From Reyranella sp. (GTDB lineage: Bacteria; Pseudomonadota; Alphaproteobacteria; Reyranellales; Reyranellaceae), in NCBI GenBank assembly GCA_036493235.1, contig DASXQC010000192.1:332-64331 (forward strand): 64,000 bases of DNA, given 5' to 3'. Position numbers and translations under genes: made by a program. Position 1 is the first letter of the stretch. Every line of letters starts with the position of its first letter. Shown one piece after another: positions 28,540-45,574 of the stretch. The notes below the pieces were generated by a model. It was not told the origin of the DNA and did not search any database. It saw nothing but the letters and a program-made list of their open reading frames with translations.

Positions 28540-29505
28540 TTACTGGAGGACGATCTCGACGCGGCGGTTCTGCGGCTCGCGCACGCCGTCGGCGGTCTGC
28601 ACCAGCGGCTGGGTCTCGCCCTTGCCGATGACCGAGATCGCCGTGGCCGGCACGCCGTCGCGCACCAGGGCGTCCTTGACCGCATTCGCACGGCGCAGCG
28701 ACAGCGCCATGTTGTAGTCCTCCGGACCCGAGCGATCAGCGTGACCGGTCGCGGTGATGCGGGCCTTGCCTGTCGCCTTGAACTGGTCAGACGCCTGGCG
28801 GATCGTATTCAGCGCCTGTTGCGACAGGTTCGAGCGGTCCCAATCGAAGAACACCATGAACGACGGCGCAGCGGCGGCCGGCGGCGGTGGCGGGGGCGGT
28901 GCGGCCTCGGGCTGCCCGAACTTGTAGGCGATGCCAGCCAGTGCCAGGAAGTTATGATTCGGGCTAGAGAAAGTCTGGCCACCGACGTTGATGCTCGGGT
29001 TGGTTGTGCCAACATAGCGTGCCTCGAGGCCGAACGTGAACCGATTGGTCAGGTTAACGCGAACACCGGCCAGAGTATCCCATGCGAACTGCGTGCTTCC
29101 GAGAGGCGAATTGCTATCGATGAACGCGATACCCGGGCCGGCGCCGACATACGGCGTCACAAAGCAGGTTGGGCAGAAATCGTAAGAGAGGTTCACGAGG
29201 GCCGTGAGCTGAGCCGCGCTGCCCACGATGGCCGTTCCCGGGACGACGACGTTGAGCGGCGTCCGACCATAACCGACATCGAGATCGACGCGGGGCCCCA
29301 CGAAGTCATAGCCGAACTTACCACCGACCACCCAGCCGACGCCCGCACTGTTCGCTCCGCTCAGCGGGGTAGTGATACCACCGCCAGCGCCGACATAAAG
29401 GCCAGGCTGAACATTGATGGTGTTAGGTTGTAGCCCAAAATCCTGAGCCTGAGCTGTGCCCGTCAGCGCTGCCAACGTCACAGCGGCGACAAATACCTTC
29501 CCCAT
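28540..29505 (-). CDS. OmpA family outer membrane protein (N-terminal beta-barrel, Pro linker, OmpA-C domain)
   Basis: Signal peptide (TAQA), barrel strands (TPYVGAG, GIAYKF), PPPPPPP linker, FFDWD, GHADRSG..YN..LS.RRA and NRRVEI; ATG 29505 with a GGGGAG RBS. Confidence 0.92.
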   Translation of the reverse strand: MGKVFVAAVTLAALTGTAQAQDFGLQPNTINVQPGLYVGAGGGITTPLSGANSAGVGWVVGGKFGYDFVGPRVDLDVGYGRTPLNVVVPGTAIVGSAAQLTALVNLSYDFCPTCFVTPYVGAGPGIAFIDSNSPLGSTQFAWDTLAGVRVNLTNRFTFGLEARYVGTTNPSINVGGQTFSSPNHNFLALAGIAYKFGQPEAAPPPPPPPAAAAPSFMVFFDWDRSNLSQQALNTIRQASDQFKATGKARITATGHADRSGPEDYNMALSLRRANAVKDALVRDGVPATAISVIGKGETQPLVQTADGVREPQNRRVEIVLQ

Positions 29506-30098
29506 TGATCGCTCCCCATGCCGATTGAAGCCGAAGTCCCAAGTGCTCGCCAATTTATTGCTGCGAAGGATAAACTAAAACCATCGCGTTGTCGGCACGA
29601 GCGCGTCTTTACCTGCATTGTTCTCTAGACATGGTGTACCCATACCATACTCTTGGCAATCGCGATCCCTATTTGCCACTAGGAAACTGCCGCCCAGCGG
29701 CGCCTTGCGCGCGGCGCGCGTGACGCCACCGAGATTGGCGTTCTGTCACGAAAAGTTGGGTACCACCGATACAACTGGCATCGACCTTATGGCAGTATCG
29801 ATGCCGTGGCCTCATCGGCACTCGGTCCAACCAGGAACTCGCTATTGAAGCTCAATGGAAAAGAGGCGAGAAATTTCGCCAGTGTTTTCTTGCATCAAAG
29901 CGACCGCCTGGGGCAAAATGCGTGCGCAGAGAGGAAGATCAGCGGCGCCGCCGCCACGCAAGCTAAATCGTGAATAGATCTCACGTTTGTAGGAAAACGA
30001 GAGATCTGACATTCGTGCTGCGGAACTAAGGAAGGCTTGTTCAGCAGGGTGTGAATGGGGATTGGGAATCGCCATTCAAGCGGGGATGAATAGCGGCA

Positions 30099-33000
30099 AT
30101 GCAATCAAAGGACGAAGTAGCAATCGTCGGCTACGCGTGCCGACTGCCCGGCGCCCGGCACAGTCGAGAACTGTGGAAGCTCCTCAAGAACAATCGCTGC
30201 ACCGTTACTCAGATCACACCCGATCGCTTCCCGATCCAGGGTTTTCATCATCCGTCTCCCGATCAGAAGGGCCGCAGCTACACCTTCGCCGCCGGCGTGA
30301 TCGACGATGTCTGGGGCTTCGATGCCTCAGCCTTCGGCATGAGCCCGCGAGAGGCCGAGCAGGTCGATCCACAGCACCGCCATCTACTCGAAGTCACCTT
30401 CGACGCGCTCGCCCATGCGGGAATCCGCCCGTCGAGCCTCGCGGGCACTGACACCGGCGTCTATGTCGGCGTCTCGTCGGTCGACCACGCCACCCGCTTC
30501 TTTGCCGATCCGACCGTTGCCGACGTTCACATGATGACGGGCAATTCGTTGAGCATCATGTCGAACCGCATTTCCTACACGCTGGACTTGCGCGGTCCGA
30601 GCCTCTCGATCGACACGGCCTGCTCTTCTTCCCTGGTCGCGCTTCATCTCGCTTCGGAGGCCATTCGCAACGGCACGATCGACACCGCAATCGTTGCCGG
30701 CGCCAACTTGATCCTTTCGCCCTACTCCTACGTCGGTTTCTCTCGTGCCTCGATGCTGTCGCCAACCGGCCTCTGCCGGCCGTTCGACGCAGGCGCTGAC
30801 GGTTACGTCCGCGCCGAAGGCGTCGTCGCCGTCGTCTTGCGTTCGATCCAGGCCGCACACCGGTCGCGCAACCACATCCACAGCGTCGTCGTCGGCTCGG
30901 CCATGAACCAGGACGGCCGCACGACAGGCATGTCGCTGCCGTCAGCCGAATCGCAGCGCGCCCTCCTGGAGAGCATCTACAGCGAATTCTCCGTCGATCC
31001 CGCCGATCTCCTCTTCGTCGAGGCGCACGGCACCGGCACCCAGGTCGGCGATCCGATCGAGGCGGATGCGCTGGGCAAGGGCTTGGGTCAGCAGCGGGCT
31101 CGCCCGCTGCCAATCGGCTCAATCAAGTCGAACGTTGGCCATCTGGAGCCAGTATCGGGTCTGGCCGGCCTCCTGAAGACCGTCATGGCTCTCAATCACG
31201 GCATGGTGCCGGCGACGCTGCACCACAAGTCGCCGAGCCCGAACATCGCCTTCGACGAGCTCAATCTTCGGGTGATCGACCGCAACTGGCGGCCCTCCGA
31301 GCAGCAGGGTAGCATGCTGGCCGGCGTCAACTCCTTCGGCTTCGGCGGTACCAACGCGCATGCGATCCTGCGGAGGGAGGCCGCGACCGAGCGGTTGGTC
31401 TATCTGCGCGCGAACGCTCCTCCGCCTCCGCTTCTAATCACCGCTCATAACAGTGACGGCGTGGCTTCACTCGCCAAGGCCTTCGACATGCAATGGCCGC
31501 GCGAAAGGCGCGCCGTTCCCGAATTCATCGGTGCAGCCGCCTATCTGCGCGATGCCCTGCCCCATCGTGCGCTGATTCGTGGTGGGACGGCGGAAGAAAT
31601 CCGCCGCAACGTGCGCGAGTTTGCGGAGAAGGGCACTGCACCGTCGGTGCTGACGGGACAGGCGCTGGGCAACGAATTGCCGGTCACCTTCCTCTTCTCC
31701 GGAAATGGCTCGCAGTGGTCAGGCATGGGCCGGCGAGCATGGCAGGGCAACGTCCACTTCCGGGAAGCACTTACGGAGATCGACGGACACTTCCGGAAGG
31801 TCCAGGCTTGGTCGATCGTCGACGAACTCTTCGTCGAGAACCTTGCCGATCGGCTGCGACGTGCGACTTACTCGCAACCCCTGTTGCTCGCTCTTCAGGT
31901 CGCCACCGTTCGCGCCCTCGAACAGAGCGGCCTCACGGCCTCTGCGGTCATGGGTCACAGTGTCGGTGAGGTGTCGGCCGCCTGGGCCAGCGGCGCGCTC
32001 AGCTTGGAGCAAGCGATCGACGTGGTCATCGCCCGCAGCCGACATCAGGAGTCGACTCACGGTACCGGCAGCATGGCGGCGTTGATGCTGAGCGAGCGCG
32101 AGGCGCGACGCTTTTTGAAGATGGCCAACGCCCAAGAAGTCGACGTTGCCGCGATCAACAGCTGGCGCAGCGTCACCGTCTCCGGCCCCACGCCCGAGAT
32201 CGACCGGCTGCTCGCGGCAGCGGAGAAGGCCCGCGTCAGCGCGCGCCGCCTCGATCTCGATTATCCCTTCCACAGCGCTTTGGTGGATCCGGTCCGCGCG
32301 CCGCTGCTGCGCGAACTCGAGGGTCTGAAGCCGCACGCGAACCGACGCAAGCTCGTCTCGTCGGTAACAGGCGAGGCGATCGACGGCCAAAGCCTTAGCG
32401 CCGAGCATTGGTGGCGCAACGTCCGCGATCCAGTACAGTTCGACTCAGCGCTCGCTTGCCTCTTGAATGATGGCTATCGCGTTTTCGTTGAAGTGGGCCC
32501 TCGTCCCGTTCTCACCAGTTACGTCCGCGACGTGCTGCGCGAGAAGGGCAATCGGGGCATTGTCGTCGAAGCAATGAACGATGCCGATGGTCCGCAGGAC
32601 CCGCTAGAGCTGGCTGTCGCGCGCGTCCTGCTTGCCGGCGGCAAGATCGACCAGCAGCGTGTATTCGGACCACCGCCGGCTACGGCTGTGCTGCTGCCGC
32701 TCTATCCTTGGCAACACACGCCCTTCAAGATGCAACCCACGATCGAAAGCAGCATGCAGCTGATCGACGTGGCGCATCCTCTGTTAGGACAACGTCCCCG
32801 CTTCGATTCGGCCGAGTGGTTCTCCATCGTCGACCCCGTGCTGTTTCCCTGGTTGCAGGACCATAAGGTGGGTGGCGTCGCGGTATTCCCCGCCACCGCC
32901 TATGTCGAGGCCGTGCTCGCCGCAGCAAGCGAAATCCTGGGCAGTGTCGCCCTCGAACTCCGCGATTTTGATATCGTCCGGCCCATCATCTTCGACGGCC

Positions 33001-36000
33001 GCACTTCGCATGAGACCAAGGTCCGCTTCTCAGTGGAAAGCGGTCTCGCTGAATTTTACTCGCGCCTGCGTGGCGGCCTGGCCGACTGGAGCCTGAACGC
33101 GCGGGGAATCGTCCGCCGCTCTCCGATCACGGCTAAGCTCGTGACACCGGCCGGGACCGGCCCCGTGACGGTGAAGAAGGCCAGGATTTACGAGTGCGCA
33201 CAGGAATTGGGCTTCACCTATGGTCTGGCGTTCCAGCGAATGCAGCAGGTCTCCTATCCTCATCCCAAACGCGCCGTCGCGCCTCTCGATCCGCCATCCT
33301 TCCCCATCGAGGGTGCTTACGTCACCGACCTGACAGCATTCGACTCGGCCTTCCATACCCTGTTCGCCACCGAGGAAGCCGGCGTGGCCGACCAGCCGAT
33401 GACGCGCATGGTACCCATTCGCCTGGGCTGCGTGCGGCTCTACAAGCCGGGTGTGGTGGCGAAGTCTGTCATCGTGCGTACAGTCCGTCAGTCGCCCACA
33501 TCGATTACTCTCGATATCGAGCTTCGCGACGATAAGGGTGACATCGTTCTCGCCGCCGATGAGGCGCGCCTGATCGAAGCTCCGGCGGATGCCCTGACCG
33601 ACCCTGCCGCGCTGGGTTACCGAACGACCGCGTGGCATCTCGATCGGGAAGGCAAGGCATCGCGATTGATTCCTCTTCGCGAGTCCGTAGCGCCGACCAC
33701 GAATGCGCCCGCAAGTCTCGACGAATCGCTGCTGCTGCTCGAAGCGGGGTGCCTGCGCTCCGCTTGGCAGGCGCTCGCCGTTGCAGACGAGGTATCAGCC
33801 GACGAAGCTGTGACTGCGACTTGGCGCGAGTTCTATCGCGCCGGCCTACTCTGGCATTTGGAACTCCGCAACCTCGCACACGAGAAGGACGGCAAGCTTG
33901 TCCCGTCGCTGACTTGTGACCTCCCGCAGGTTGCCTCCATTCTGGGCTCGCTGACGGTGCGCCACCCAACCATGACGGTGGAAGCCACGAGCCTTGCCCG
34001 GATCGACGAGATTCTTGGCCGGCTCCTGTCTGCCGACCCTGATGCGATACACGAGCTGACCTCGGCCCACTGGCGCAATCTCGGGTTGGCCTCGAGCCAG
34101 ACGCAGCTGTTGCGTCAGTCCGTCGTCGGCCATCTGAATGCGATCATTGAGCAAGCCGACGACGATCGCCTCTTCCGTGTTCTCATGGTCGGCAGCGAGC
34201 ACCTTACCGCCGGCCACGACCTCATCAACCGCTTCGGCAATCTCGAACTGTTGGTGACCGACGTCGATCCCGGCCGCCTCGAACAGGCGAGACTTGCGGC
34301 TGGCGATTCAGAGGCCCGCATCCGCTGGGTGGCGTGGACGTCGCTCGGGGAACTCGCGCCGCGGAGCATCGATCTCGCCTTCGCGATCGATGCGCTGAGC
34401 GAGGTTGCAGCCTTCGACGGCGGCCTCGCGTCGGTAATACGCGTGCTGCGGCCGGGAGCGCCCGTCGTCGCGGGAGAGCTGAGCCCCAGTCTCTTCTGGG
34501 ACATCGTTCGGGGCACGAAAGCCACCTGGTGGGCCCGGTCCGCCAACCCAGCCTTTCCTGTCGGCGCGCTGTTGACGCGTCAGGAGTGGATCGACGAGTT
34601 GGACCTGGCCGGCATGAGATCGGCGTCAGCAAGTTCGGTAGTGGATGGCACGCATATTGGCATTTTCATCCAGGCCATCGCCCCGGCAGCTGCCCCCGAC
34701 GAGAGTTCGGGCGCCGAGTCGGTCTTCTCCTGGGAAGGCGATGATGCCAGCGAATCCAAGGGGAACGTCCAACTGCGCAGCCGTGTCGCTGAGCGCCTTG
34801 GCGAGCAGCCCCCGGATCTAGCCTCTCCTGCCCGACCGACGACGGACATCGTATGGACGATCGCCGCTATGCGCGCGATGGCCGATCCGATGGCCGTCCT
34901 AACACGTCATCTCGCCGGCATTGCCGCACGCTGCCGGCGGATCGGCGATACCGTCCGGCGCCTGTGGATTCTGATCGAGTTCGATCAGGTCGAAGATGTC
35001 ACCCAGCCTCTTGCTCTACCGGTCTGGACCTCGGTCACGTCGGCGATGCGCGTAGCGCAGAACGAATATGCCGGACTCCAGATCCGCTGCCTTGGCCTTG
35101 CCGATACTACCGCATCGACGATCGACCGGACCGCGGACGAATTGATGGCACCCGAAGCCGATCGAGAGATCTTCGTTTCGGGCGCGCATCGCACAATCGT
35201 CCGCATCCGTCGCGGAGCGACCGCAAGGGCTGTCGCCGACGCCGCCCCCGACGCCGATCACACCGCGATTGGCCTGTCGCCGCGCGCCGAGCATGGCCGC
35301 CTCGCCTGGATCACGGAGGAAAGGTCCTTCCCCAAGGTGGGTGAGATCGAGGTCAAGGTGGCGGCGACCGGCCTAAACTTCCGGGACGTAATGTGGAACC
35401 TTCGCCTGCTGCCGGAGGAGGCGCTCGAGGAGGGCTATGCAGGAGCCAGCCTCGGCATGGAATGCGCTGGCATTGTCACGCGAGTTGGCGCCAACGTCGA
35501 TACGGTGAGGCTCGGCGACAAGGTCGTAGGTTTCGCCGCGCACGCCTTCCGAAGCCATGTCGTCGCGCCTGCCTTCACTTTCGCGCGGATGGCGGACGAT
35601 CTCACCTTCGATGCCGCGAGCACTATCCCAGTCGCGTTCCTCACGGCGTACTACTCGCTTCTGCATCTCAGCCGGTTGAAAGGTGGGGAGACTGTCCTGA
35701 TCCACGGTGGGGCGGGCGCAGTCGGCCTTGCCGCGGTCCAGATCGCGCGCCTGGTCGGTGCACGGATCGTCGCCACGGCGGGCAGCGAGGAGAAGCGCGC
35801 ATTCCTCCGCCACTATGGCGTGGATTTCGTCTGCAATTCGCGGACGCTGACCTTCGCCGATGAGATCAACGCTTATACGAACGGCAAGGGCGTCGACGTC
35901 GTCCTGAACTCGCTGGCGGGCGAGGCTATGAGCCGTTCGATGGACTGCCTGCGTCCCTTCGGCCGTTTTGTCGAGCTGGGCAAGCGCGATTTCTACGCCA

Positions 36001-37505
36001 ACACCCATCTCGGACTCCGGCCCTTGCGGCGCAACCTCTCCTACTTTGGCGTCGACATCGACCAGCTGATCGCCGAACACCGCGACGTCGCTTGCCGGCT
36101 GTTCGGCGAGATCATCGGGTTCTTTTCCACTGGCCAGCTTGTGGCACTGCCGCATCGCGTGTTCGTCGGTGAACGTGTGGATGACGCTTTCCGCTTGATG
36201 CAGCGCTCTGGCCATGTGGGCAAGATCGTGATCCGGCCGCCGGCCTCAAAGGCCGCTCGCGGCCAAATGCGCGGTGCCTTCCCTGTAGGCACTCAGGGCA
36301 CACATGTCATCATAGGCGGCACAAGCGGCTTTGGTCTCGCCACGGCTGGTTGGTTGGCCGACCGTGGTGCGCGCCACGTGGTGCTGGCCAGCCGGTCCGG
36401 CCGCGTCTCGGAGGGTGATCAGGCGGAGCTAGATAAGCTCCGCCGCAAGGGCGTCGGTGTGTCGGTCGAAAGCGTCGACGTCGCCGACGAGGCGACACTT
36501 CGGCAACTGCTGCGCGGTGTGAGCGAAGTTGGCGCGGTGAAGGGCATCGTCCATGCTGCGATGGTGATTGACGACCGGCTAATCGAAGGAATCGATGCCG
36601 ACGCCATTGAAACAGTGCTGCGACCCAAGATCACCGGCGCGCTCAACCTCGAACGCATCGCGGCCGACCTCGATCTCGATTATCTGCTGCTCTATTCGTC
36701 GGCGACGACAATGTTCGGCAACCCCGGACAGTTCAACTATGTCGCGGCCAATGGCTTCATGGAAGGTCTCGCCCGACAGATGCAGGCTCGCGGCCTGCCC
36801 GCTATCGCCGTCTCCTGGGGCGGCATCGAGGACGCGGGTTACATCTCGCGCAACATCGCCACGGACTCCAATCTGCGCAAGCGCTTTTCCTCGAGTCTGA
36901 TCTCGGCGCAAACCGCTCTGGACGGCCTCGACTGGGCCTTCGATCAGGCTGGCCGGCCCGCAACGGCGCATTGCGCACTCGCGAGGATCAACTGGTCGCT
37001 GGCGCGGCACGAATTGGCGGTTGTCAGGACCCCAATCTTCGGGTCGCTGGGCGCCACCAGTGGATCGCGCCAGTCGGGCGAATCGGCTGCCATCCTCGAG
37101 AAACTGCGCGGCCTTTCGGTGGATGTCGCCGCCGATGCACTGGTCGAAATCGTAGTCGAGGAGATCGCTCGAGTACTGCGGCTGCCTCCTAAGGAGATCG
37201 ACCGCCATCGACCGCTTTCCGAAATCGGCATGGACTCCCTGATGATGCTGGAACTCCGCAACGTCGTCGAGGGCGTGTTGCAGGTCGACCTGCCGATGAT
37301 GTCGCTGTCGAGCGGCATTACTCCGGTCGACGTCGCCCGCCGGATCGCACCACTGGTGACGGGCGAACAGAAGCAGACTGTACCGAGCGCGCTGGCAGCG
37401 ATCACAACAAGCCATTTTGCCGAAGAGATAGCCACAACGACGATCGAGGAGCAGAATGCCGCCGTCGACGCCGTCCTCGGCAGGCTGCATGACCTCAGCA
37501 ACTAG
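30099..37505 (+). CDS. Reducing type I polyketide synthase KS-AT-DH-(pseudo-MT)-ER-KR-ACP, RkpA/WcbR-like
   Basis: 2468 aa; KS DTACSSS, HGTGT and KSNVGH; AT GHSVG and YPFHS; DH HKVGGVAVFP; ER LIHGGAGAVG; KR GGTSGFG and YVAAN; ACP GMDSLM; no TE domain. Confidence 0.95.
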   Translation: MQSKDEVAIVGYACRLPGARHSRELWKLLKNNRCTVTQITPDRFPIQGFHHPSPDQKGRSYTFAAGVIDDVWGFDASAFGMSPREAEQVDPQHRHLLEVTFDALAHAGIRPSSLAGTDTGVYVGVSSVDHATRFFADPTVADVHMMTGNSLSIMSNRISYTLDLRGPSLSIDTACSSSLVALHLASEAIRNGTIDTAIVAGANLILSPYSYVGFSRASMLSPTGLCRPFDAGADGYVRAEGVVAVVLRSIQAAHRSRNHIHSVVVGSAMNQDGRTTGMSLPSAESQRALLESIYSEFSVDPADLLFVEAHGTGTQVGDPIEADALGKGLGQQRARPLPIGSIKSNVGHLEPVSGLAGLLKTVMALNHGMVPATLHHKSPSPNIAFDELNLRVIDRNWRPSEQQGSMLAGVNSFGFGGTNAHAILRREAATERLVYLRANAPPPPLLITAHNSDGVASLAKAFDMQWPRERRAVPEFIGAAAYLRDALPHRALIRGGTAEEIRRNVREFAEKGTAPSVLTGQALGNELPVTFLFSGNGSQWSGMGRRAWQGNVHFREALTEIDGHFRKVQAWSIVDELFVENLADRLRRATYSQPLLLALQVATVRALEQSGLTASAVMGHSVGEVSAAWASGALSLEQAIDVVIARSRHQESTHGTGSMAALMLSEREARRFLKMANAQEVDVAAINSWRSVTVSGPTPEIDRLLAAAEKARVSARRLDLDYPFHSALVDPVRAPLLRELEGLKPHANRRKLVSSVTGEAIDGQSLSAEHWWRNVRDPVQFDSALACLLNDGYRVFVEVGPRPVLTSYVRDVLREKGNRGIVVEAMNDADGPQDPLELAVARVLLAGGKIDQQRVFGPPPATAVLLPLYPWQHTPFKMQPTIESSMQLIDVAHPLLGQRPRFDSAEWFSIVDPVLFPWLQDHKVGGVAVFPATAYVEAVLAAASEILGSVALELRDFDIVRPIIFDGRTSHETKVRFSVESGLAEFYSRLRGGLADWSLNARGIVRRSPITAKLVTPAGTGPVTVKKARIYECAQELGFTYGLAFQRMQQVSYPHPKRAVAPLDPPSFPIEGAYVTDLTAFDSAFHTLFATEEAGVADQPMTRMVPIRLGCVRLYKPGVVAKSVIVRTVRQSPTSITLDIELRDDKGDIVLAADEARLIEAPADALTDPAALGYRTTAWHLDREGKASRLIPLRESVAPTTNAPASLDESLLLLEAGCLRSAWQALAVADEVSADEAVTATWREFYRAGLLWHLELRNLAHEKDGKLVPSLTCDLPQVASILGSLTVRHPTMTVEATSLARIDEILGRLLSADPDAIHELTSAHWRNLGLASSQTQLLRQSVVGHLNAIIEQADDDRLFRVLMVGSEHLTAGHDLINRFGNLELLVTDVDPGRLEQARLAAGDSEARIRWVAWTSLGELAPRSIDLAFAIDALSEVAAFDGGLASVIRVLRPGAPVVAGELSPSLFWDIVRGTKATWWARSANPAFPVGALLTRQEWIDELDLAGMRSASASSVVDGTHIGIFIQAIAPAAAPDESSGAESVFSWEGDDASESKGNVQLRSRVAERLGEQPPDLASPARPTTDIVWTIAAMRAMADPMAVLTRHLAGIAARCRRIGDTVRRLWILIEFDQVEDVTQPLALPVWTSVTSAMRVAQNEYAGLQIRCLGLADTTASTIDRTADELMAPEADREIFVSGAHRTIVRIRRGATARAVADAAPDADHTAIGLSPRAEHGRLAWITEERSFPKVGEIEVKVAATGLNFRDVMWNLRLLPEEALEEGYAGASLGMECAGIVTRVGANVDTVRLGDKVVGFAAHAFRSHVVAPAFTFARMADDLTFDAASTIPVAFLTAYYSLLHLSRLKGGETVLIHGGAGAVGLAAVQIARLVGARIVATAGSEEKRAFLRHYGVDFVCNSRTLTFADEINAYTNGKGVDVVLNSLAGEAMSRSMDCLRPFGRFVELGKRDFYANTHLGLRPLRRNLSYFGVDIDQLIAEHRDVACRLFGEIIGFFSTGQLVALPHRVFVGERVDDAFRLMQRSGHVGKIVIRPPASKAARGQMRGAFPVGTQGTHVIIGGTSGFGLATAGWLADRGARHVVLASRSGRVSEGDQAELDKLRRKGVGVSVESVDVADEATLRQLLRGVSEVGAVKGIVHAAMVIDDRLIEGIDADAIETVLRPKITGALNLERIAADLDLDYLLLYSSATTMFGNPGQFNYVAANGFMEGLARQMQARGLPAIAVSWGGIEDAGYISRNIATDSNLRKRFSSSLISAQTALDGLDWAFDQAGRPATAHCALARINWSLARHELAVVRTPIFGSLGATSGSRQSGESAAILEKLRGLSVDVAADALVEIVVEEIARVLRLPPKEIDRHRPLSEIGMDSLMMLELRNVVEGVLQVDLPMMSLSSGITPVDVARRIAPLVTGEQKQTVPSALAAITTSHFAEEIATTTIEEQNAAVDAVLGRLHDLSN

Positions 37506-37507
37506 AG

Positions 37508-38869
37508 ATGGCTGCATATCACGACGACGCCCAGGAAACGGTCAATCGGGTCCGACAGGTCCTCGAGACATTCGGACGTGAGCCGAAGCGCTCGACTGCG
37601 GCCCGCGAAGCGCCGCTAGGCCAGGCAGAGCAACACGCAGCGTTCAGTGAGCTGCCGGAATACGAGATATTCAAACTAGGACGCGCCGCGAGCGACATCA
37701 CCGGAATCTCCAACCCGTTCCATCGCCTGCATCACGGCCGCGCCCGCGAGACAACGACGATCGACGGTCGAACGGTCGCGAACTTCTCGTCCTACGACTA
37801 TCTCGGACTCAATGGGCATCCTGTCGTGAGCGCAGCGGCCAAGGTCGCCATCGACCGTTTTGGCACGTCAGTCTCGGCCAGTCGCCTGACTGCGGGCGAA
37901 CGCGAGATCCATCGCGAGTTGGAAGTCTCCTTGGCCAGGCTGCATGGCAGCGAGGATGCCCTAGCCTTCGTGTCCGGCCATGCCACCAACGTCTCGGTCA
38001 TCGGTACGCTGCTCGGCTCGGAAGACCTGATCCTCTGCGATTCGTTGATCCACAATAGCGTCACGGAGGGTGCCAAGCTGGCCGGAGCCAAGCGGATTAC
38101 CTGGCCTCACGGTGATCTCGAAAGCCTCGAGCGCGCACTCAGGCTCAACCGTGCTCGGCATCGGCGGGCGCTCGTCGTTACCGAGGGGCTCTACAGCATG
38201 GATGGCGACATGCCGGACCTCGCAGCCCTGATCAAGCTCAAACGCCGCTACAATGCCTGGCTCATGGTCGACGAGGCGCATTCACTGGGGGTCCTCGGCG
38301 CCACTGGAAGGGGCATCGCTGAGGAGCAGAATGTCCCGCCGACCGATGTCGACATCTGGATGGGCACGCTCAGCAAGTCGCTGGCCGCCACAGGCGGCTA
38401 CATCGCCGGCAGCAAGGCGCTTATCGAGATCCTGAAGTACACGACGCCGGGCTTTGTCTACAGCGTTGGGCTGTCGCCACCAGTCGCCGCAGCGGCTCAT
38501 GCGGCGATCGACGTAATGCGGGCGGAACCCGAACGGCTGCACAGGTTGCGCGACAACGGACAATACTTTCTGTCCGGAGCGAAGGCCCGCGACCTCGATA
38601 CAGGCCTTAGCATTGGCGCCGCCATCGTTCCTGTGATCATCGGCAATTCCGCGCAAGCCATCATACTGGCCGACCGATTGCTGGCGCGCGGATTCAACAT
38701 CGTGCCGGCGATCTTTCCTGGCGTCGCGGAGAATCAAGCGCGACTACGGATTTTCATTACCAGCCAGCACTCGGCCGGCCAGATCGATAGTGTCCTGGAT
38801 GCCATCGCTGAGGAATTGAAGATCGTCCGAAGCGGGCCCTCCTTCGTGTCCATGGTCGCCAAGGGATGA
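37508..38869 (+). CDS. Alpha-oxoamine synthase (SPT/BioF family PLP acyltransferase, RkpG/WcbT-like)
   Basis: NFSSYDYLGL, HNS, EGLYSMDGD, DEAHS and GTLSKS; starts 2 nt after the PKS stop. Confidence 0.9.
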   Translation: MAAYHDDAQETVNRVRQVLETFGREPKRSTAAREAPLGQAEQHAAFSELPEYEIFKLGRAASDITGISNPFHRLHHGRARETTTIDGRTVANFSSYDYLGLNGHPVVSAAAKVAIDRFGTSVSASRLTAGEREIHRELEVSLARLHGSEDALAFVSGHATNVSVIGTLLGSEDLILCDSLIHNSVTEGAKLAGAKRITWPHGDLESLERALRLNRARHRRALVVTEGLYSMDGDMPDLAALIKLKRRYNAWLMVDEAHSLGVLGATGRGIAEEQNVPPTDVDIWMGTLSKSLAATGGYIAGSKALIEILKYTTPGFVYSVGLSPPVAAAAHAAIDVMRAEPERLHRLRDNGQYFLSGAKARDLDTGLSIGAAIVPVIIGNSAQAIILADRLLARGFNIVPAIFPGVAENQARLRIFITSQHSAGQIDSVLDAIAEELKIVRSGPSFVSMVAKG

Positions 38870-39654
38870 ACTATCGGACCGTCGCGATCACCGGCGCGTC
38901 TAGCGGCATAGGGGCGGCGTTGGCCCAACGGCTTGCCGCGCCGGGCCGGTTGCTCGTCCTGATGGCACGTAACGCCGAACGACTTGAGCACGTGGCCGAA
39001 ACGTGCCGGGCCAAGGCGGCGACGTGTCGCAAGATCGACATCGATGTCCGCGATCGCGATCGGATCGTGACCGCGTGCGAGGATCTCGATCGCGAGCTCG
39101 GATTCGATCTCTTGATCGCCAACGCCGGCATCCTCGACGGCCGGCGCGCCGACGAGATTGTCGAGAGCGGAACGACCGCACGTCAGGTCCTGGAGACGAA
39201 TCTCCTTGCGACGATCGATGTCATCCATGCCGTGCTACCCGGTATGCGCAGACGTCGCCGGGGCAGTATCGTGCTTGTGTCTTCATTGGCTGCTTTCTTT
39301 CCGTTGACGGATGCCCCGGCCTACTCCGCTTCGAAGGCCGCCCTTGTCTCCTACGGAGTCGCGCTGCGCAGCGCCCTTTCGGGCCAAGGAGTAAACGTCG
39401 TCGTGGCCTGTCCAGGCTTCGTGATCACGCCGATGTCCGATGACCATGTCGGTGCTCATCCCGACGCGGTCACCGCCGACGATGCTGCCCGGCGAATCCT
39501 TGCCGGACTTGACGCAAACCGGGCACTGATCGGCTTCCCGGCCGTGCCGTTCTGGTTGTCCCGCCTCAGTCTGCTCGTGCCTGAATCGTGGCGCCGACGC
39601 GACGCGGACAAGACCCGTTTCCATGTCAGACCGCGGCCGCCGGCGGAGACTTGA
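38866..39654 (+). CDS. SDR family oxidoreductase (RkpH/WcbP-like)
   Basis: TGASSGIG, NAG, YSASK and CPGFV motifs; ATGA overlap with the oxoamine synthase. Confidence 0.9.
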   Translation: MNYRTVAITGASSGIGAALAQRLAAPGRLLVLMARNAERLEHVAETCRAKAATCRKIDIDVRDRDRIVTACEDLDRELGFDLLIANAGILDGRRADEIVESGTTARQVLETNLLATIDVIHAVLPGMRRRRRGSIVLVSSLAAFFPLTDAPAYSASKAALVSYGVALRSALSGQGVNVVVACPGFVITPMSDDHVGAHPDAVTADDAARRILAGLDANRALIGFPAVPFWLSRLSLLVPESWRRRDADKTRFHVRPRPPAET

Positions 39655-39657
39655 CCA

Positions 39658-40350
39658 ATGTCCTCCTCGCGGGGTTTGCAGCGCTCCAATAGCGGCTGGC
39701 TGGCAACAGTCGAAGCGCGGGCACTCGACTTTCTGGCCGTCCGCCTGCCCCGCTTCGTCACGCCAAACCAGTTGACGGCACTCGGCTTCAGCGGTGCGGT
39801 ACTCGCCTTTGTCGGTTACGCTCTGGCTGCGCACCAAGCGGCCTTCCTCTGGCTCGTTGAAGTGGGATTAATCCTGAACTGGTACGGCGATTCGCTGGAT
39901 GGCCGTGTGGCCCGGCTGCGGGGGCGCGAACGTCCGCGCTACGGCTTCTTCCTCGATCAGTCGGTCGACATTCTCGCCCAGGCGCTGTTTTCGCTGGGCC
40001 TCGGCATGTCCGGCTATATCAGGCCGGAGATCGTGGCCGCAGGATTCGCGGCCTATCTGATGATGACAGCTCAGTCGCTGTTGCGCGCCCACGCCACAGG
40101 CGTTTTCCATCTGGCGACGGGCGGTATGGGTCTAACCGAGGTACGCTGTCTCTTCCTCGTGGCCAACGCCGTTTTGTACTTCGTGCCTCCACGGCCCTTC
40201 CAGATCGGCTCGACGACGTTCGCCTATCCCGACCTGTTCGGCGTCGTCTGGATCCTCACGAACATTGTGCTGTACGTCGTCGCGATGTTCACCGAGCTGA
40301 AGAACCTCGCCCGTGAGGAGCCCAACGAACCTGAGAGTTTGTTAGATTAA
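39658..40350 (+). CDS. CDP-alcohol phosphatidyltransferase family protein
   Basis: TPNQLT and the signature DSLDGRVAR..YGFFLDQSVD (DxxDGxxAR..GxxxDxxxD); multi-TM. Confidence 0.9.
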   Translation: MSSSRGLQRSNSGWLATVEARALDFLAVRLPRFVTPNQLTALGFSGAVLAFVGYALAAHQAAFLWLVEVGLILNWYGDSLDGRVARLRGRERPRYGFFLDQSVDILAQALFSLGLGMSGYIRPEIVAAGFAAYLMMTAQSLLRAHATGVFHLATGGMGLTEVRCLFLVANAVLYFVPPRPFQIGSTTFAYPDLFGVVWILTNIVLYVVAMFTELKNLAREEPNEPESLLD

Positions 40351-40484
40351 TCTATCTCAACGATTGCACCTCTCCGCCGAACGTCGTGCAATACTTGGTC
40401 TGGTTGACCCTCGAGGTAGACATTAGAGTCGCAAATCCAAGCTGCGCCCGCTTGTTCCGAATTGGCTCTCTGGAAAGAGTTGCC

Positions 40485-41096
40485 TTACATCGGCGGCGTC
40501 AAGCCGTCCTTGCCAACCGCCATGCGAGCGGCCGTCATGCTGCCGTCGGCCGCCTTCTGGGCGATGACGAACACCTTGGCGCCGACCTTGGCGTCGCTCT
40601 GCTGGCCTGGTTGGAAAGTGACGATCGGCGTGCCCGGCTTCACCTTGATGGTCTGCGTGCCGCCGCCCTTGTAGTCGAGCTTCAGCGTCTGGCCGTCGGA
40701 GGCGCTCGCCACCGTAGCGACATTGGCGTTGGTCATCATGCTGTTGGGCTTGAGGTCCCACGCATAGTGGCCTTCGCCGGTGCCGCGCAGCGCTTCCGGG
40801 AACACCAGCACCTCGAGCGCGGTACGGTCGGCGTCGCTTCCGATCGACGCGATGCCGACGAAGCTGCCCTGCTTGACGTCGGCCAGCGTCAACGGCGTCA
40901 CGAGGCTGACCCCCCAATTGTCGGCCAGCTTGACGTTCGCAGTCGTGCCGTCCCGCACGGCGATGGTCACGGTCTTGCCGTCGATGGCGGTGATCGCGCC
41001 GCGCAGGCGCACAGGCGTGGTCTGCGCCGAGGCGGTGAAGCTCAAACCGAGGACGGCCGCGGCCAACAGGCCAACGATGAAGCGGATGGTGAGCAT
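40485..41096 (-). CDS. Secreted beta-rich hypothetical protein with two similar OB-fold-like halves
   Basis: Signal peptide ending ASA-Q, GGAGG RBS; similar halves (RLRGAITAIDGKTVTI and VATVASASDGQTLKL; DVKQGSFV and DAKVGAKVFV). Confidence 0.7.
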   Translation of the reverse strand: MLTIRFIVGLLAAAVLGLSFTASAQTTPVRLRGAITAIDGKTVTIAVRDGTTANVKLADNWGVSLVTPLTLADVKQGSFVGIASIGSDADRTALEVLVFPEALRGTGEGHYAWDLKPNSMMTNANVATVASASDGQTLKLDYKGGGTQTIKVKPGTPIVTFQPGQQSDAKVGAKVFVIAQKAADGSMTAARMAVGKDGLTPPM

Positions 41097-41281
41097 GTGT
41101 CCTCCCTGAAAGGAGGCGTCAGCTTGGCACGCGCAATTCGCACGGGCCGCTTACGTTTGCGTGAGGCGGTCGCGAGGACAGATGCGCGCACGTTGCAACC
41201 GTACGTCTTGCTTCGGGTTGATCCGTCAGGGTGATCGCCAGTCCGGGGTTGGCATTCGCCAGCATGCCTTCGGAGTTGTCG

Positions 41282-41439: not shown

Positions 41440-42222
41440 TCAGGTGTCGGCGAGCTGGTCGCCGGTCGAGAGGAATCGGCGCTCGCTACCGCGCAGCACC
41501 AGGCAGGTGAGCCGCCCGCTCACGAAAGCGCCAGTGTCGATATTGATGCGATGCCCGCGATTCTGCGGCAGGTCGCAGATCGTGTGGCCATGCACCACCA
41601 CGCGTCCCGGCAGCGGCGTGCGCACGCGCAGGAAGTCGTCGCGGATCCACAGCAGGTCGGTCTGTGTCTGCTTCTCCAGCGTGATGCCCGGCCGCACGCC
41701 GGCATGCACGAAGACATAGTCGCCGACCGTGTAGTGCAGCAGGCAGCGGCGAAAGAAGGCGACGTGCCGTTCCGGCACCGCCTCGATCAGCGCAGTCTGC
41801 AGCGCCCTCACCGCCTCGCCGCTGTTGGGCAGGCTGCGCAACGGCACGCCGTAGGACAACAGCGTCTCCAGCCCGCCAAACGACAGCCAGTCGATGCCGT
41901 CGCTCTCGCCGTCCAGGAACGAGAGCAGCGCCTCTTCGTGATTGCCCATCAAACGGACCGTAGTGAAACCCGGCAGCAGGTCGGACATCACGGCATCGAC
42001 CACGCCGCGGCTTTCCGGGCCGCGGTCGACGTAGTCGCCGAGAAAGATCAGGCTGCGTGCCGAATCTAACGGCTGCTGCGCGGCGTCCTCCCGGATCTGC
42101 GCCAGCAGATCCTCGAGCAGGTCGAGACGGCCGTGGATGTCGCCGATGGCGTACACCGCCTGCCCGGCCGGGACGGTTCCCGGCCGCGTCGCAGGCGCAA
42201 GACCGAACAAACGTCGCAGCAT
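41440..42222 (-). CDS. Metallophosphoesterase (PPP/PrpA-like protein phosphatase family)
   Basis: GDIHG, GDYVDRG, GNHE, VHAG, HGHT and IDTGA motifs. Confidence 0.9.
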   Translation of the reverse strand: MLRRLFGLAPATRPGTVPAGQAVYAIGDIHGRLDLLEDLLAQIREDAAQQPLDSARSLIFLGDYVDRGPESRGVVDAVMSDLLPGFTTVRLMGNHEEALLSFLDGESDGIDWLSFGGLETLLSYGVPLRSLPNSGEAVRALQTALIEAVPERHVAFFRRCLLHYTVGDYVFVHAGVRPGITLEKQTQTDLLWIRDDFLRVRTPLPGRVVVHGHTICDLPQNRGHRINIDTGAFVSGRLTCLVLRGSERRFLSTGDQLADT

Positions 42223-42258
42223 CTGAAGCGACTACCCCCACGAAGCGGGGGAAGCAAC

Positions 42259-44727
42259 TCACTTCACCCGCGGCACGATACGCTTGAGCTTGGCAATGCC
42301 GCTCTCATCCTCGGCAGCTGCCCGGCGCGGACGGCTAGGCTCGCCTTGGGCCCGCTCGCGGCGGCCACCCGTGCTACCGTCGGCGCTGCCCCCACCGGCG
42401 CCGGCACCCCGCTGGTTGGGGTTTGCGCCATAGTAGGAGTTGTAGCGCGAGTAGTAGTCGCCGTAGTCGCCGTACTCGTAGAGCGCGTGCTTGGCGAGGT
42501 TGACCTTGTTGATGACGATGCCGACGCGGTCGGTGACGCCCAGCAGGGCCGCGACCGCGCTCTTCACCACGTCGCGCGGCGTCTTGGCCCAATGCACGAT
42601 GAAGATCGTGTAGTCGGCGAGCTGCGAGATGATGCGTGCATCGGACACCGCCATCACCGGCGGACTGTCGAGGATTACCAGGTCGTAGCGGTCCGCGAAG
42701 GTTGCCAACGCGGCCTTCATGGCATGCGACTCCAGGATCTCCGGCGCGTTCGGCGTGTCAGCGCGGGCGCAGATGTAATCCACGCCCGAGACGTCGTGGC
42801 GACGGATGCACTCATCGAGCGTCTTGGTGCCCATCAGGTACTCGTCGATGGTGCCGCCGCGCTCCTTGAGGCCGAGCGCGACCGCCAGCTTGGCCTGCCG
42901 CAGGTCGAGGTCGACCAGCAGCACGCGGCGCGAGGCGTTCATCTTGGTGAGCAGGCCGCCCAACGCCGCCGCGAAGGTCGTCTTGCCTTCGGCCGGTGTG
43001 GACGACGTGACCGCGATCACCCGGGCCGGGCGATCGAGGTTGCTGAGGCTGATCGCAGTGAACACCGCGCGCATCGCCTCCGCGGCCGACGAGGTCGTGC
43101 GGTCCAGCACCTGCGTGACCATGTTGGCGCGCAGGCCGGCGGAGCCCTTGATCAGCGGCACCATGCCGAGCACGGCAACGCCGGTGGCCTTCTCGACCTG
43201 CGAGGCCGAGCGGAACACGCGGTCCAGCTTCTCTGCCGCCACCGCGCCAGCCATGCCGAGCAAGCAGCCGATGAGGAACGCGGCGAACAGGCCGGTCTTG
43301 TACTGCGGTGAGCTGGGCGCGCCGGCCGGCCAGGCATAGGCCAGAATGCGCGCGTCGGCCCGCTGGATGTCCTGCTGCTCGCGCAGCTCCTTGAAGCGGT
43401 TCAGGAAGCTTTCGTAGAGAGCACGGTTGGACTGCGCCTCGCGCTCGAGCTGCTTGAGTTCGGCTTCGTACTGGCTGGTCGCGCCCACCATGACCGAGGA
43501 CTTCTCGACCTGGGTGCGCAGCTCCTCCTCCTCCGACTTGGCCGCGTCGAGCTCGGCACGGATCGCCAGGGTCAGGCTCTGCGTCGCCGCCAGGAAGCGG
43601 CCGCGCACTGCAGCCAGCTCGGCCTGGACCTGCAGAACCTTGGGATGGTTCGGCCCAAAGGTGGTCTGGTACTCGGCGATCCTGCGGTTGAGGTCGGCTT
43701 CCTGCTGGCGCAGCGTGCTCAGCGTGGCGTTGTTGGCCACTTCGGCGATGTTGGCGACCTCATTGGGGTTGAGGCTGGCCTTGGAGAGCGCGACCAGGCG
43801 GCTCTCCTTCTCGATGCGCCGGGTCTTGGCGGCGATGTAGCGCGTGTTGAGGTCCGACAGCGTCTGCGTGGAGACGACGCCCTCGGGACTGCCCGCCAGG
43901 CCCTTGTCGCGGCGGTAGGTGGCGACCGCCTCTTCGGCAACCTGCAGGTTACGGCGCAGCTCGGCCAGGCGCTCTTCCAGCCATTCGGTGGCGCGACGGT
44001 TGGCCTCGTTCTTGTTGTCGACCTGGTCTGCCAGGTAGACCTCGGCGATCGCGTTGGCGATGCGCGCCGACATCGTGCCGTCGGTGCTCTCCACCGTGAT
44101 CACGATCACGAAGGTACGGCCCAGCAGGCTGACGCTGAGATGGCCCGCGACAGTGCCGATCGCGGTGCGGCGGCCGGGGTCGCTGTCGTCGGCCTTGGCG
44201 CCACGCTGCGGCGTCGCCGGTGCGTTCTGCGGCTGGCGCGCCTGCGGCGGGGCCAGCAGCGAGGCAATGCCCGAATGCCAGAGCTCGCGGATCGGCGCGA
44301 GCGAGCTGTCGAGAAAGCCCGGCGGCTTGGTGCCGTTGAACTCGGGATTGGAGGCGAGACCCAGCCGGTCGACCACGCGGCCGATCAGGAACTCGGACTG
44401 GATGACCTCCAGCTCACTCTGGATCGCGCCCATGTTCATGGTGTCGACGCCGGACAGGGCCGCCTCAGCTTTCACCGGGGTGAAGGTCCTGGTGTCGAGC
44501 ATGATGCGGGCCGACGCCTTATACATCGGGGTCGCCTGGGCAATGATCAGCGCCATCAGCGCGACCGCCAGCAGGCCCGCCCCGATGATCAGGGCTTTGC
44601 GCCGATTGAGCAGGCGCAGCCACTCCCACAGCTCGTTCGGGGCCTCCATTGCATGCTGTTGGCCCGAAGAACTGACAGGATCGGCTGTCTGCTGCGAGAT
44701 CCGGCCGAAACCGGCCTCATCGTCCAT
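42259..44727 (-). CDS. wzc: Wzc-type polysaccharide co-polymerase/BY-kinase
   Basis: Wzz-like N-terminus, coiled coil, second TM, Walker A TSSTPAEGKTT, VDLDLR, ILDSPP and Tyr cluster YEYGDYGDYYSRYNSYY; start uncertain (44754, 44727 or later). Confidence 0.9.
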   Translation of the reverse strand: MDDEAGFGRISQQTADPVSSSGQQHAMEAPNELWEWLRLLNRRKALIIGAGLLAVALMALIIAQATPMYKASARIMLDTRTFTPVKAEAALSGVDTMNMGAIQSELEVIQSEFLIGRVVDRLGLASNPEFNGTKPPGFLDSSLAPIRELWHSGIASLLAPPQARQPQNAPATPQRGAKADDSDPGRRTAIGTVAGHLSVSLLGRTFVIVITVESTDGTMSARIANAIAEVYLADQVDNKNEANRRATEWLEERLAELRRNLQVAEEAVATYRRDKGLAGSPEGVVSTQTLSDLNTRYIAAKTRRIEKESRLVALSKASLNPNEVANIAEVANNATLSTLRQQEADLNRRIAEYQTTFGPNHPKVLQVQAELAAVRGRFLAATQSLTLAIRAELDAAKSEEEELRTQVEKSSVMVGATSQYEAELKQLEREAQSNRALYESFLNRFKELREQQDIQRADARILAYAWPAGAPSSPQYKTGLFAAFLIGCLLGMAGAVAAEKLDRVFRSASQVEKATGVAVLGMVPLIKGSAGLRANMVTQVLDRTTSSAAEAMRAVFTAISLSNLDRPARVIAVTSSTPAEGKTTFAAALGGLLTKMNASRRVLLVDLDLRQAKLAVALGLKERGGTIDEYLMGTKTLDECIRRHDVSGVDYICARADTPNAPEILESHAMKAALATFADRYDLVILDSPPVMAVSDARIISQLADYTIFIVHWAKTPRDVVKSAVAALLGVTDRVGIVINKVNLAKHALYEYGDYGDYYSRYNSYYGANPNQRGAGAGGGSADGSTGGRRERAQGEPSRPRRAAAEDESGIAKLKRIVPRVK

Positions 44728-44887
44728 GTTAGAGACCCTAGAGAAAGAACCCATAGTTTACCATCCCGCGACCGGCCTTGCCGACCCCTCCACAAACCCA
44801 AGGACCGACCGGCGTTTCCGCACCGGATGGCCCTCCTTCATAGGTCCGGAGCTCCCACAGCCCCAGGCCCGAGTCCTGCCGTAATTC

Positions 44888-45574
44888 CTAGAACCACCTC
44901 TCTCCAACCCGGATCACATCACCGGGTTCCACGAGGGTGTCCTCGGTTACGTATTCTTCTTCCGCAGCGGTCGAGTAGAACCGCTTGATCGTCAGCCGGG
45001 TCTTTCCGGCGCGGCGGGTGAACCCGCCGCCAATGGCGATCGCCTGGATCACGCGTAGGCAGTTCGCGTAGGGAAACTGGCCGGGCCGCGTCACTTCACC
45101 GATGATGTAGAACGGCCGCATCGAGACCAGCTCGACGCTGAGCCGCGGCGCCACCAGATAGCCCTGCGCCTTGTACTTGTCGCGCAGCATTTCCTCGATC
45201 TCCGGGATCGTCTTGCCGACGATCTGGATCGGCCCGAGCATGCGCGCCGAGATGCCGCCGGAGGCGTTGACTTCGTAATCGCCCGAGAACTCGGTGTCCT
45301 GCAGGACGATCACCCGGATCTTGTCGCCCGCGCCCAACCGGTAGCCGGCATCGGTTTGCTTGCAGTCGTTGGTCCGCGCGACGGTCGGCCCGTTGATCGG
45401 GGGCGTCTGGCTGAACGAGGTGACGTCGCGCTGAGGTGGAGTCGGCAACTGCCACACGCCAGTGGTGCGGCCATCACAGGCGGCAGCGCCGAGCAGCGCG
45501 AGCACGGCCACCCCGGCGAGGGCCGGCCTGCCGGACAGGAGGTGACGGAGGTTTCCAGGAATGAATCTCAGCAC
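44888..45574 (-). CDS. wza: Polysaccharide export protein (Wza/OPX, Poly_export + SLBB)
   Basis: Lipobox-like LGAAAC, YRLGAGDKIRV, GEVTRPGQFPY, AIAIGGGFT and PGDVIRV. Confidence 0.9.
   Translation of the reverse strand: MLRFIPGNLRHLLSGRPALAGVAVLALLGAAACDGRTTGVWQLPTPPQRDVTSFSQTPPINGPTVARTNDCKQTDAGYRLGAGDKIRVIVLQDTEFSGDYEVNASGGISARMLGPIQIVGKTIPEIEEMLRDKYKAQGYLVAPRLSVELVSMRPFYIIGEVTRPGQFPYANCLRVIQAIAIGGGFTRRAGKTRLTIKRFYSTAAEEEYVTEDTLVEPGDVIRVGERWF

Follow-up and report, generated by a model that had tools for sequence, protein, structure and literature searches.

Which product is made by an operon that joins a polyketide synthase (PKS) to enzymes of the sphingolipid type, and what does a CDP-alcohol phosphotransferase (CDPOH) do at its end? 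This question is raised by four genes of Reyranella sp. on contig DASXQC010000192.1 of assembly GCA_036493235.1, of which a stretch of 64,000 nucleotides (positions 332 to 64,331; hereafter the window, from whose first letter positions are counted) was analyzed. The genes encode the PKS, a pyridoxal phosphate (PLP)-dependent alpha-oxoamine synthase (AOS), a short-chain dehydrogenase/reductase (SDR) and the CDPOH. On balance, we think it probable that the operon makes a PKS-derived sphingoid phospholipid. Its first three genes are of an already known kind, the PKS sphingolipid module called Sga, Rkp or Wcb. New here are a CPT/EPT-like CDPOH in place of the sulfatase-type partner, the operon coupling it to the SDR, the joint loss of these two genes, the nested distribution of the CDPOH and its exclusion of the sulfatase-type gene.

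A predicted route from polyketide synthase to long-chain base

The operon consists of the following features, all genes lying on the + strand:

29554-30098 (no strand): presumed operon promoter region, 545 bp between the divergent OmpA-like and PKS genes (ORF map)
30099-37505 (+): iterative, fully reducing single-module type I PKS, SgaA/RkpA/WcbR-like, 2468 aa (Pfam domains, motifs)
37508-38869 (+): AOS, SgaB/RkpG/WcbT-like, 453 aa (NCBIfam scores, tree, conserved catalytic residues)
38866-39654 (+): classical SDR, SgaC/RkpH/WcbP-like, predicted 3-keto reductase of the amino-ketone, 262 aa (adh_short, motifs)
39658-40350 (+): six-helix CDPOH of a small, distinct subfamily, candidate head-group transferase, 230 aa (PF01066, motif, structure model)

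Read directly from the DNA, the junctions are TAG-ag-ATG between PKS and AOS (2-nt gap), an ATGA overlap that places the SDR start on the AOS stop, and TGA-cca-ATG between SDR and CDPOH (3-nt gap). A sequence-only reading of the window had described exactly this tight coupling, and its open reading frame (ORF) coordinates were exact. The operon is set apart from its neighbors by a divergent OmpA-family gene upstream, across the 545 bp, and by a convergent minus-strand gene downstream. No match to the sigma-70 consensus was found in the upstream region, and a promoter and terminator scan gave nothing above shuffled sequences, so that the promoter is placed by gene layout only. A 266-nt contig that is 96% identical, taken from a metatranscriptome library of soil, runs across the SDR stop into the start of the CDPOH gene (window 39583-39845) and hints weakly at co-transcription in a relative; the run concerned (X20) covers 263 bases of the stretch and is silent on expression of the remainder.

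According to Pfam, the PKS comprises ketosynthase (KS), acyltransferase (AT), dehydratase (DH), a sub-threshold methyltransferase (MT)-like stretch, enoylreductase, ketoreductase and acyl carrier protein (ACP) domains. No thioesterase domain was detected in it by the same models, and the chain would therefore stay ACP-bound. The motifs of KS (DTACSS, HGTGT, NVGH), AT (GHSVG, YPFH), DH (HxxxGxxxxP) and ACP (DSL) are intact; those of the AT we take to be of the malonyl type. The MT-like insert lacks GxGxG and is therefore probably a structural pseudo-MT. Identity is 56-63% to Reyranella orthologues and 36-45% to the PKSs of Kps-type loci, and no tailoring oxygenases were found in the operon by Pfam. 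Judging from these domains and from experiments with homologues, the enzyme would act in a fatty acid synthase (FAS)-like, iterative manner and build a saturated very-long-chain acyl group on its own ACP from malonyl units.

The AOS, whose Pfam match is Aminotran_1_2, has an N-terminal extension of roughly 75 aa and the motif GTLSKS with Lys290, and the catalytic residues His182, Asp255 and His258 are conserved. It stays below all NCBIfam equivalog cut-offs tried: 358 bits for bioF (cut-off 426), 299 for KBL (460) and 240 for 5-aminolevulinate synthase (ALAS; 339), as well as 292, 277 and 212 bits for the serine palmitoyltransferase (SPT) models (640, 500 and 670). In the tree, the PKS-linked AOSs including that of the window form a monophyletic clade with support of 100/99, to which neither BioF and Kbl of E. 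coli nor the ALAS and the true SPT of this genome belong. A phylogeny against SPT, BioF, RkpG and WcbT had been suggested in the sequence-only reading; it separates the enzyme from SPT and BioF, and covers a sample outside which PfSgaB, WcbT and RkpG lie. When orthologues were sought with the AOS of Castellaniella, none from Pseudomonas or Burkholderia turned up.

By analogy with its homologue PfSgaB, the AOS would condense the ACP-bound chain with an amino acid, most likely L-serine, and thereby set it free as a 3-keto long-chain base. A Polyangia metagenome-assembled genome (MAG) holds a single ORF of 2373 aa (L107:2279-9397) in which a PKS (KS-AT-ACP-KR-DH-like) is followed by a C-terminal AOS; this AOS domain is 53% identical to that of the window, and the fusion therefore provides a Rosetta-stone argument for direct off-loading from PKS to AOS. 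The SDR (adh_short, 149.5 bits in Pfam) contains TGASSGIG (TGxxxGxG), NAG and YSASK (YxxxK), and would reduce the ketone to a sphinganine-type amino-diol.

Elsewhere in the same genome, a canonical SPT is encoded at G000:C879:4753-5847 (locus L112:1501-2595, minus; 614 bits with NCBIfam NF047599, whose cut-off is 500), and ALAS has a gene of its own. Two independent routes to sphingoid bases thus seem open to the organism, and the PKS-made lipid would exist alongside canonical SPT-dependent sphingolipids, which the genome also appears able to make. Like the canonical bacterial pathway (Spt, bCerS, CerR), the operon would begin with a PLP-dependent condensation with serine; it differs in the PKS-bound acyl donor, in the AOS clade and in a classical SDR that is not of the CerR type.

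The closest experimental counterpart is found in Pseudomonas fluorescens MYb115, which needs both SgaA, an iterative PKS, and the AOS SgaB to form C24-C28 sphinganines and compounds heavier by 154 Da, assigned as phosphoglycerol sphingolipids (Peters et al. 2025, PMC12134224). In vitro, the purified SgaB protein joins acyl-CoAs to L-serine and scarcely accepts alanine or glycine, SgaA and SgaB yield very-long-chain 3-keto bases, and the SDR of the cluster, SgaC, was proposed as the 3-keto reductase (PMC12134224). That study leaves the head-group enzyme unnamed and mentions no capsule, sulfatase or CDP enzyme. It tabulates 6,101 SgaAB homologues, including those of Prosthecomicrobium, Cohaesibacter and Methylobrevis, with 4 in Reyranella, 2 in Enhydrobacter, 2 in Castellaniella, 241 in Sinorhizobium and 3452 in Burkholderia (Supplementary Data 4 of PMC12134224); members of the PKS-linked AOS clade come from the same genera. 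The window has in common with Sga an iterative type I PKS, an AOS of SPT-type chemistry next in order, and a classical SDR, and the phosphoglycerol sphinganines of MYb115 are a phospho-head-group sphingolipid of the kind predicted here. Compared with Sga, the window adds the CDPOH, the arrangement in one translationally coupled operon and the location in a Wza/Wzc exopolysaccharide island.

The PKS/AOS/SDR trio also lies in the surface-polysaccharide loci rkpA-rkpG-rkpH(-rkpI-rkpJ) of Sinorhizobium and wcbR-wcbT-wcbP(-wcbQ-wcbO) of B. pseudomallei. The sequence-only reading had called the lipid product of these genes not well defined. This part is outdated, because the product of this type of PKS/AOS/SDR was determined in MYb115 in 2025 (PMC12134224). 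Its other part, that such genes normally have a sulfatase-like gene and Kps genes as neighbors, was borne out in relatives: outside the Reyranella group, AOS orthologues (50-60% identity) are accompanied by KpsS/KpsC, KpsM/T, a KpsD-like protein and a protein with transmembrane (TM) and sulfatase parts, and the published annotation of BPSL2787-2792 of B. pseudomallei reads AOS, LpxC-like, PKS WcbR, sulfatase-type membrane protein, SDR and KpsS. The window locus, in contrast, shows no KpsS/KpsC and no sulfatase-type gene, has Wza/Wzc/BBP2_2 for export, and carries the CDPOH in the place of the sulfatase-type gene. An assignment to group 2 Kps capsules (rkp-1/wcb type) was rejected, since no PF05159 match (KpsS/KpsC) was detected in the 78%-complete genome and KpsS/KpsC, KpsMT and RkpI/WcbQ are absent from the Reyranella CDPOH loci.

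By sequence, the first three genes match the Sga/RkpAGH/WcbRTP module for PKS-dependent sphingoid bases, and we regard the first three steps, from chain building to the reduced base, as likely. The same order of reactions (PKS, off-loading by the AOS, ketoreduction) had been put forward in the sequence-only reading and has experimental backing in the homologous Sga system; the subsequent CDPOH step is argued from comparative genomics only. The four-gene form itself was not described in the literature searched on rkp/wcb genes, on oxoamine synthases with PKS and CDP-alcohol enzymes, and on Reyranella lipids, in keeping with the earlier remark that it is not known as a characterized system.

The CDP-alcohol phosphotransferase and its distribution

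The CDPOH matches PF01066 (32 bits, cut-off 22), and its motif DSLDGRVAR-x9-GFFLD-QSVD fits the signature DxxDGxxAR...GxxxDxxxD with a spacer one residue longer than the textbook x8. Pfam and motifs thereby agree with the first description of all four proteins: a fully reducing single-module PKS without thioesterase, an oxoamine synthase with GTLSKS, an SDR and a CDPOH with intact signature. The subfamily is small and well delimited, with 479 clusters at E<=1e-30 among 1.84 billion representatives; a look-up in the ESM Atlas returned generic CDP-OH clusters only.

The AlphaFold2 (AF2) model has six helices in the CDP-OH PT fold (pLDDT 88.8). Using this model, Foldseek placed human CEPT1 first (TMq 0.71), followed by AF2299, CHPT1 and phosphatidylinositol phosphate (PIP) synthases. 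Human CEPT1 was also the sole match of the single sequence among solved structures. A family profile of 19 members, run against the PDB, gave CEPT1 at 2.3e-13, the two CHPT1s near 1e-8 (CHPT1 at 5e-9) and PIP synthase at 0.02; CEPT1/CHPT1 scored 35-40 bits above PIP synthase, and their matches span nearly the full length, from the N-terminal amphipathic helix through TM6. Neither PgsA nor PSS in the PDB was found by this profile, the NCBIfam models for PgsA, PssA and Pcs gave no match, and the two other CDP-OH transferases of the genome (PgsA-like and Pss/Pcs-like) went undetected by the profile. The CDPOH is the third, non-housekeeping paralogue of the genome.

CEPT1 and CHPT1 belong to the Kennedy pathway, and CPT/EPT enzymes act on a lipid hydroxyl with a soluble CDP-alcohol as donor; head-group addition to a sphingoid base calls for this chemistry. 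Related known enzymes are the ceramide phosphoethanolamine synthase of Drosophila and the CPT of Treponema denticola. Besides being the best profile and fold matches, CEPT1 and CHPT1 would share with the CDPOH the use of CDP-alcohol and lipid hydroxyl. They differ from it in length and topology (about 400 aa and ten helices, against 230 aa and six, without TM7-10) and are only 16-20% identical; the CDPOH has the x9 spacer, and no genes for CDP-choline or CDP-ethanolamine synthesis were found with it.

The block PKS-AOS-SDR-CDPOH is kept as a unit in about 25 Reyranellales loci with protein identities of 54-72%, far beyond chance. A cluster search for all four genes had been suggested in the sequence-only reading, and the CDPOH was thereby found beside the PKS in these loci. 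Two sub-arrangements of the block occur in Reyranella, one with a UDP-sugar dehydrogenase gene after the CDPOH. In one Reyranella group (L011:9131-9922, minus, and also L009, L010 and L027), SDR and CDPOH are separated by a gene for a 263-aa SAM methyltransferase that is read from the opposite strand. The model that it matches best is the mycobacterial phthiotriol dimycocerosate MT, a lipid O-methyltransferase (81 bits), and its position fits a hydroxylated lipid intermediate.

The SDR is present wherever the CDPOH occurs in Reyranella loci, and both are lost together. In L036, L041, L044, L045 and L046, also from Reyranella, PKS and AOS are intact and only fragments remain of the SDR (N-terminus) and the CDPOH (C-terminus). 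The ends of the deletion differ among these five loci; therefore, the two genes decayed together several times, in at least five lineages. Joint decay is expected if the SDR makes the substrate of the CDPOH.

Beyond Reyranella, relatives of the CDPOH adjoin PKS-AOS in three further lineages, namely Bosea Root381 (L020), a Rhodobacter-labelled MAG with the order PKS-AOS-GT4-CDPOH next to KpsT/M (L098), and Beijerinckia mobilis (L088). All five of the further genomes with a CDPOH relative away from a PKS encode a PKS-AOS pair elsewhere, and such a pair is present in only 6 of an even sample of 200 Alphaproteobacteria; since the five carriers represent few families, the comparison is not a formal statistic. 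From this nested distribution, the CDPOH is read as an accessory of the PKS-AOS system. Among the loci compared, a sulfatase-type gene (RkpI/WcbQ) or KpsS/KpsC was never seen in the same locus as the CDPOH. This exclusion is consistent with a CDPOH in the position of rkpI, as proposed in the sequence-only reading.

The genome search with the AOS returned 80 loci, and a homologous PKS lies directly upstream in most of those whose contig reaches that far; no PKS was detected next to the AOS in the Hyphomicrobium-type loci L083 and L086 and in Beijerinckia L088. A second kind of PKS-AOS locus, without SDR or CDPOH, was observed in Reyranella massiliensis-type loci (L047, L050 and L055-L061), together with a beta-helix protein, an LpxO-like Asp/Asn beta-hydroxylase, GT2 and GT4 glycosyltransferases and a protein with a formyltransferase domain. 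Some Reyranella genomes have both kinds. Of the named strains, R. soli NBRC 108950 has all four genes in its locus, and the PKS-AOS locus retrieved from R. massiliensis 521 lacks SDR and CDPOH.

In the fourth step, the membrane-bound CDPOH would move a phospho-alcohol from a CDP-alcohol to a hydroxyl group of the base and release CMP, so that a phospho-head-group sphingolipid would arise; it would thereby do the job suspected of the sulfatase/LtaS-type proteins RkpI and WcbQ in Kps-type loci. We lean towards a CDPOH that acts on the PKS-made lipid in this way. This step is supported by the conserved operon, the joint loss with the SDR, the distribution nested in PKS-AOS genomes, the exclusion of the sulfatase-type gene and the CEPT1-like profile.

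Other donors, acceptors and products

Several observations weigh against this assignment. Orthology of the window genes to PfSgaA, PfSgaB and PfSgaC is indirect, as it is based on clade membership, synteny and the genus table, and the window's own genome is a MAG of 78% completeness. The CDPOH was found in none of five sampled AOS-positive genomes, most PKS-AOS loci are without it, and several Reyranella lineages keep PKS and AOS after the loss of SDR and CDPOH, which is dispensable there. In L098, CDPOH and PKS-AOS occur with no SDR nearby. The wider CDPOH family is also present in other phyla without PKS; no PKS lies near P0191, which is on a contig bearing a type IX secretion system (Bacteroidota-like), or near P0253. 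Distant CDPOH relatives have glycosyltransferases (a specific GT4 and a 660-aa GT2 fusion) and LpxL-like acyltransferases as their closest conserved partners, which would suit a glycolipid primer that can do without the sphingoid base. Among NCBIfam models, the best for the CDPOH is archaetidylinositol-phosphate (AIP) synthase (50 bits, cut-off 180). This score is about as strong as the CEPT1 match, and the CPT/EPT-like assignment is therefore not exclusive. Finally, no cytidylyltransferase for CDP-glycerol, CDP-choline or CDP-ethanolamine was found in or near the cluster with PF01467 and PF12804, complete Reyranella genomes included, which favors CDP-diacylglycerol as the only obviously available donor.

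CDP-diacylglycerol is the CDP-alcohol of every bacterium, and is used with serine by PssA and with choline by Pcs. If the CDPOH used it with the hydroxyl of the PKS-made amino alcohol as acceptor, a three-tailed phosphatidyl-(long-chain base) lipid would result. This we consider unlikely, though it shares the PKS-AOS-SDR linkage with the head-group reading and gains from the missing donor genes: no TagD/CCT/ECT-type gene was found, the three PF01467 matches per complete Reyranella genome being of housekeeping size, and no NTP_transf_3 gene lies near the cluster. The models of PIP and AIP synthases, which use CDP-diacylglycerol or CDP-archaeol, give 30-50 bits. The family profile speaks against it, as it misses PgsA, PSS and the genome's own CDP-diacylglycerol enzymes and ranks CEPT1/CHPT1 above PIP synthase, with a concordant fold ranking. 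As for PIP synthase itself, the CDPOH reached 30 bits with the NCBIfam model (cut-off 170), and inositol-1-phosphate synthase (MIPS; PF01658) was absent from the MAG, three complete Reyranella chromosomes, R. soli and Bosea, the control genomes being matched. Inositol phosphate was set aside because no MIPS was found in these six genomes, and with the equivalog cut-offs missed as well, the identification of the CDPOH as PIP synthase was rejected.

About equally improbable is a CDPOH that leaves the PKS product alone and supplies the glycosyltransferases with a phospholipid primer of its own, a phosphatidyl- or polyprenyl-linked alcohol; it would then accompany PKS and AOS only because all of them serve the same polysaccharide. 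In mycobacteria, PIP synthase supplies PimA, and the distant CDPOH relatives resemble the PIP synthase-PatA-PimA cluster in that they adjoin GT4 genes and genes for LpxL/PatA-family acyltransferases; SDRs and a P450 are found near them as well. The GT4 neighbors (L020, L021 and L098) are 51-55% identical across three lineages. The 660-aa protein has a GT2 domain at its C-terminus, preceded by 390 aa that belong to no known family (L035:260-2233, minus; L022:7969-9984; L025:2717-4810). It is conserved with 37-40% identity beside the CDPOH or the PKS in Reyranella, Beijerinckiaceae and Hyphomicrobiales; in Reyranella group B, its gene also diverges from that of the PKS. A distant family member, P0125, adjoins an SDR and a KpsM-like gene. 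In the metagenomic relatives P0191 and P0217, the enzyme is fused to a transmembrane domain of the GtrA/DPMS kind or to a VTT domain of the DedA type; both domains are linked to the flipping of lipid carriers, to which these fusions would point. That PKS-AOS persists without the CDPOH, and the wider family without PKS, likewise suits a primer. In the window, however, neither this GT4 nor the GT2 fusion is present, the CDPOH is translationally coupled to the SDR and repeatedly lost with it, and all tested alphaproteobacterial carriers have PKS-AOS. Moreover, the window differs from the mycobacterial cluster by scores far below the PIP/AIP synthase cut-offs and by the lack of inositol-1-phosphate synthase in the six genomes. 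The glycosyltransferase neighbors also fit a phospho-sphingolipid as acceptor for the start of a glycan.

A diffusible amino-polyketide (fumonisin- or vitroprocine-like) with the CDPOH as unrelated housekeeping enzyme is very improbable: the combination of PKS, AOS and SDR is common to fungal sphingolipid-like toxins (PMC12134224), whereas here the PKS is fully reducing and FAS-like, the operon is without tailoring oxygenases and lies within envelope-polysaccharide loci in every lineage, and the CDPOH is not a housekeeping paralogue. Least of all, with hardly any probability, would the AOS be BioF of biotin synthesis or the organism's ordinary SPT. Its best single NCBIfam model is indeed bioF, yet below that cut-off and those for SPT, KBL and ALAS, and with true SPT and ALAS encoded separately and a distinct 100/99 clade, this identification was rejected.

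The polysaccharide island and the possible role of the lipid

A large island of envelope-polysaccharide genes surrounds the operon. Nonulosonic-acid genes (PseB/PseC/NeuB-like and a cytidylyltransferase fusion) lie upstream, as do genes for glycosyltransferases, a deacetylase, an initiating sugar transferase and a PglF-like dehydratase. The flanking features are:

28540-29553 (-): OmpA-family outer-membrane protein, divergent from the PKS gene (Pfam); kept upstream in the closest relatives
40485-41096 (-): conserved hypothetical protein of 203 aa, encoded convergently to the operon by the final gene of the minus-strand export (Wzc) operon (GC3 0.91)
41440-47219 (-): exopolysaccharide export operon with metallophosphoesterase, Wzc-like co-polymerase/kinase, Wza-like exporter and BBP2_2 outer-membrane barrel (Pfam)

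The same export genes follow the block in many Reyranella loci. The protein at 40485-41096 (-), which has no Pfam match, shows 63-69% identity in relatives, compared with 43-52% for the + strand frame; an ORF of 282 aa on the + strand (40386-41234) was thus rejected as a gene and is a shadow of the conserved minus-strand gene. An ORF at 67-1491 (-) is unsupported as KpsS-like, with no NCBIfam family at E<=1e-5 and no PF05159 match. DNA near-identical to the window occurs in soil metagenomes of many studies.

Because the operon is placed in a Wzx/Wzy-Wza/Wzc exopolysaccharide island, its product is probably an envelope lipid tied to a glycan, either as anchor or primer or as a partner lipid in the outer membrane. 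A more specific proposal, which we put forward tentatively and hold to be rather doubtful as a whole, is that the CPT/EPT-like CDPOH is a bacterial Kennedy-type head-group transferase, which would use a soluble CDP-alcohol on PKS-made very-long-chain sphinganine and be a non-orthologous replacement of the LtaS/sulfatase-type RkpI/WcbQ, and that its sphingo-phospholipid anchors or primes the Wzx/Wzy exopolysaccharide. If true, it would be the first head-group enzyme of the PKS sphingolipid pathway, and the lipid would be part of the first sphingolipid-anchored polysaccharide outside Kps systems.

For almost thirty years the PKS/AOS/SDR trio was unexplained in the capsule loci of rhizobia and Burkholderia, and PKS-made sphingolipids were described only in 2025; the CDPOH is a concrete candidate, the best so far, for their head-group step. 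The locus presents the system in a compact version of four genes in a single operon, in non-pathogenic soil bacteria of which some are cultured (Reyranella soli), and sister lineages that lost only SDR and CDPOH provide natural controls. The findings suggest that CDP-alcohol and sulfatase-type transferases are alternative solutions to the head-group step, and the locus ties the published Sga lipids to the biology of surface polysaccharides.

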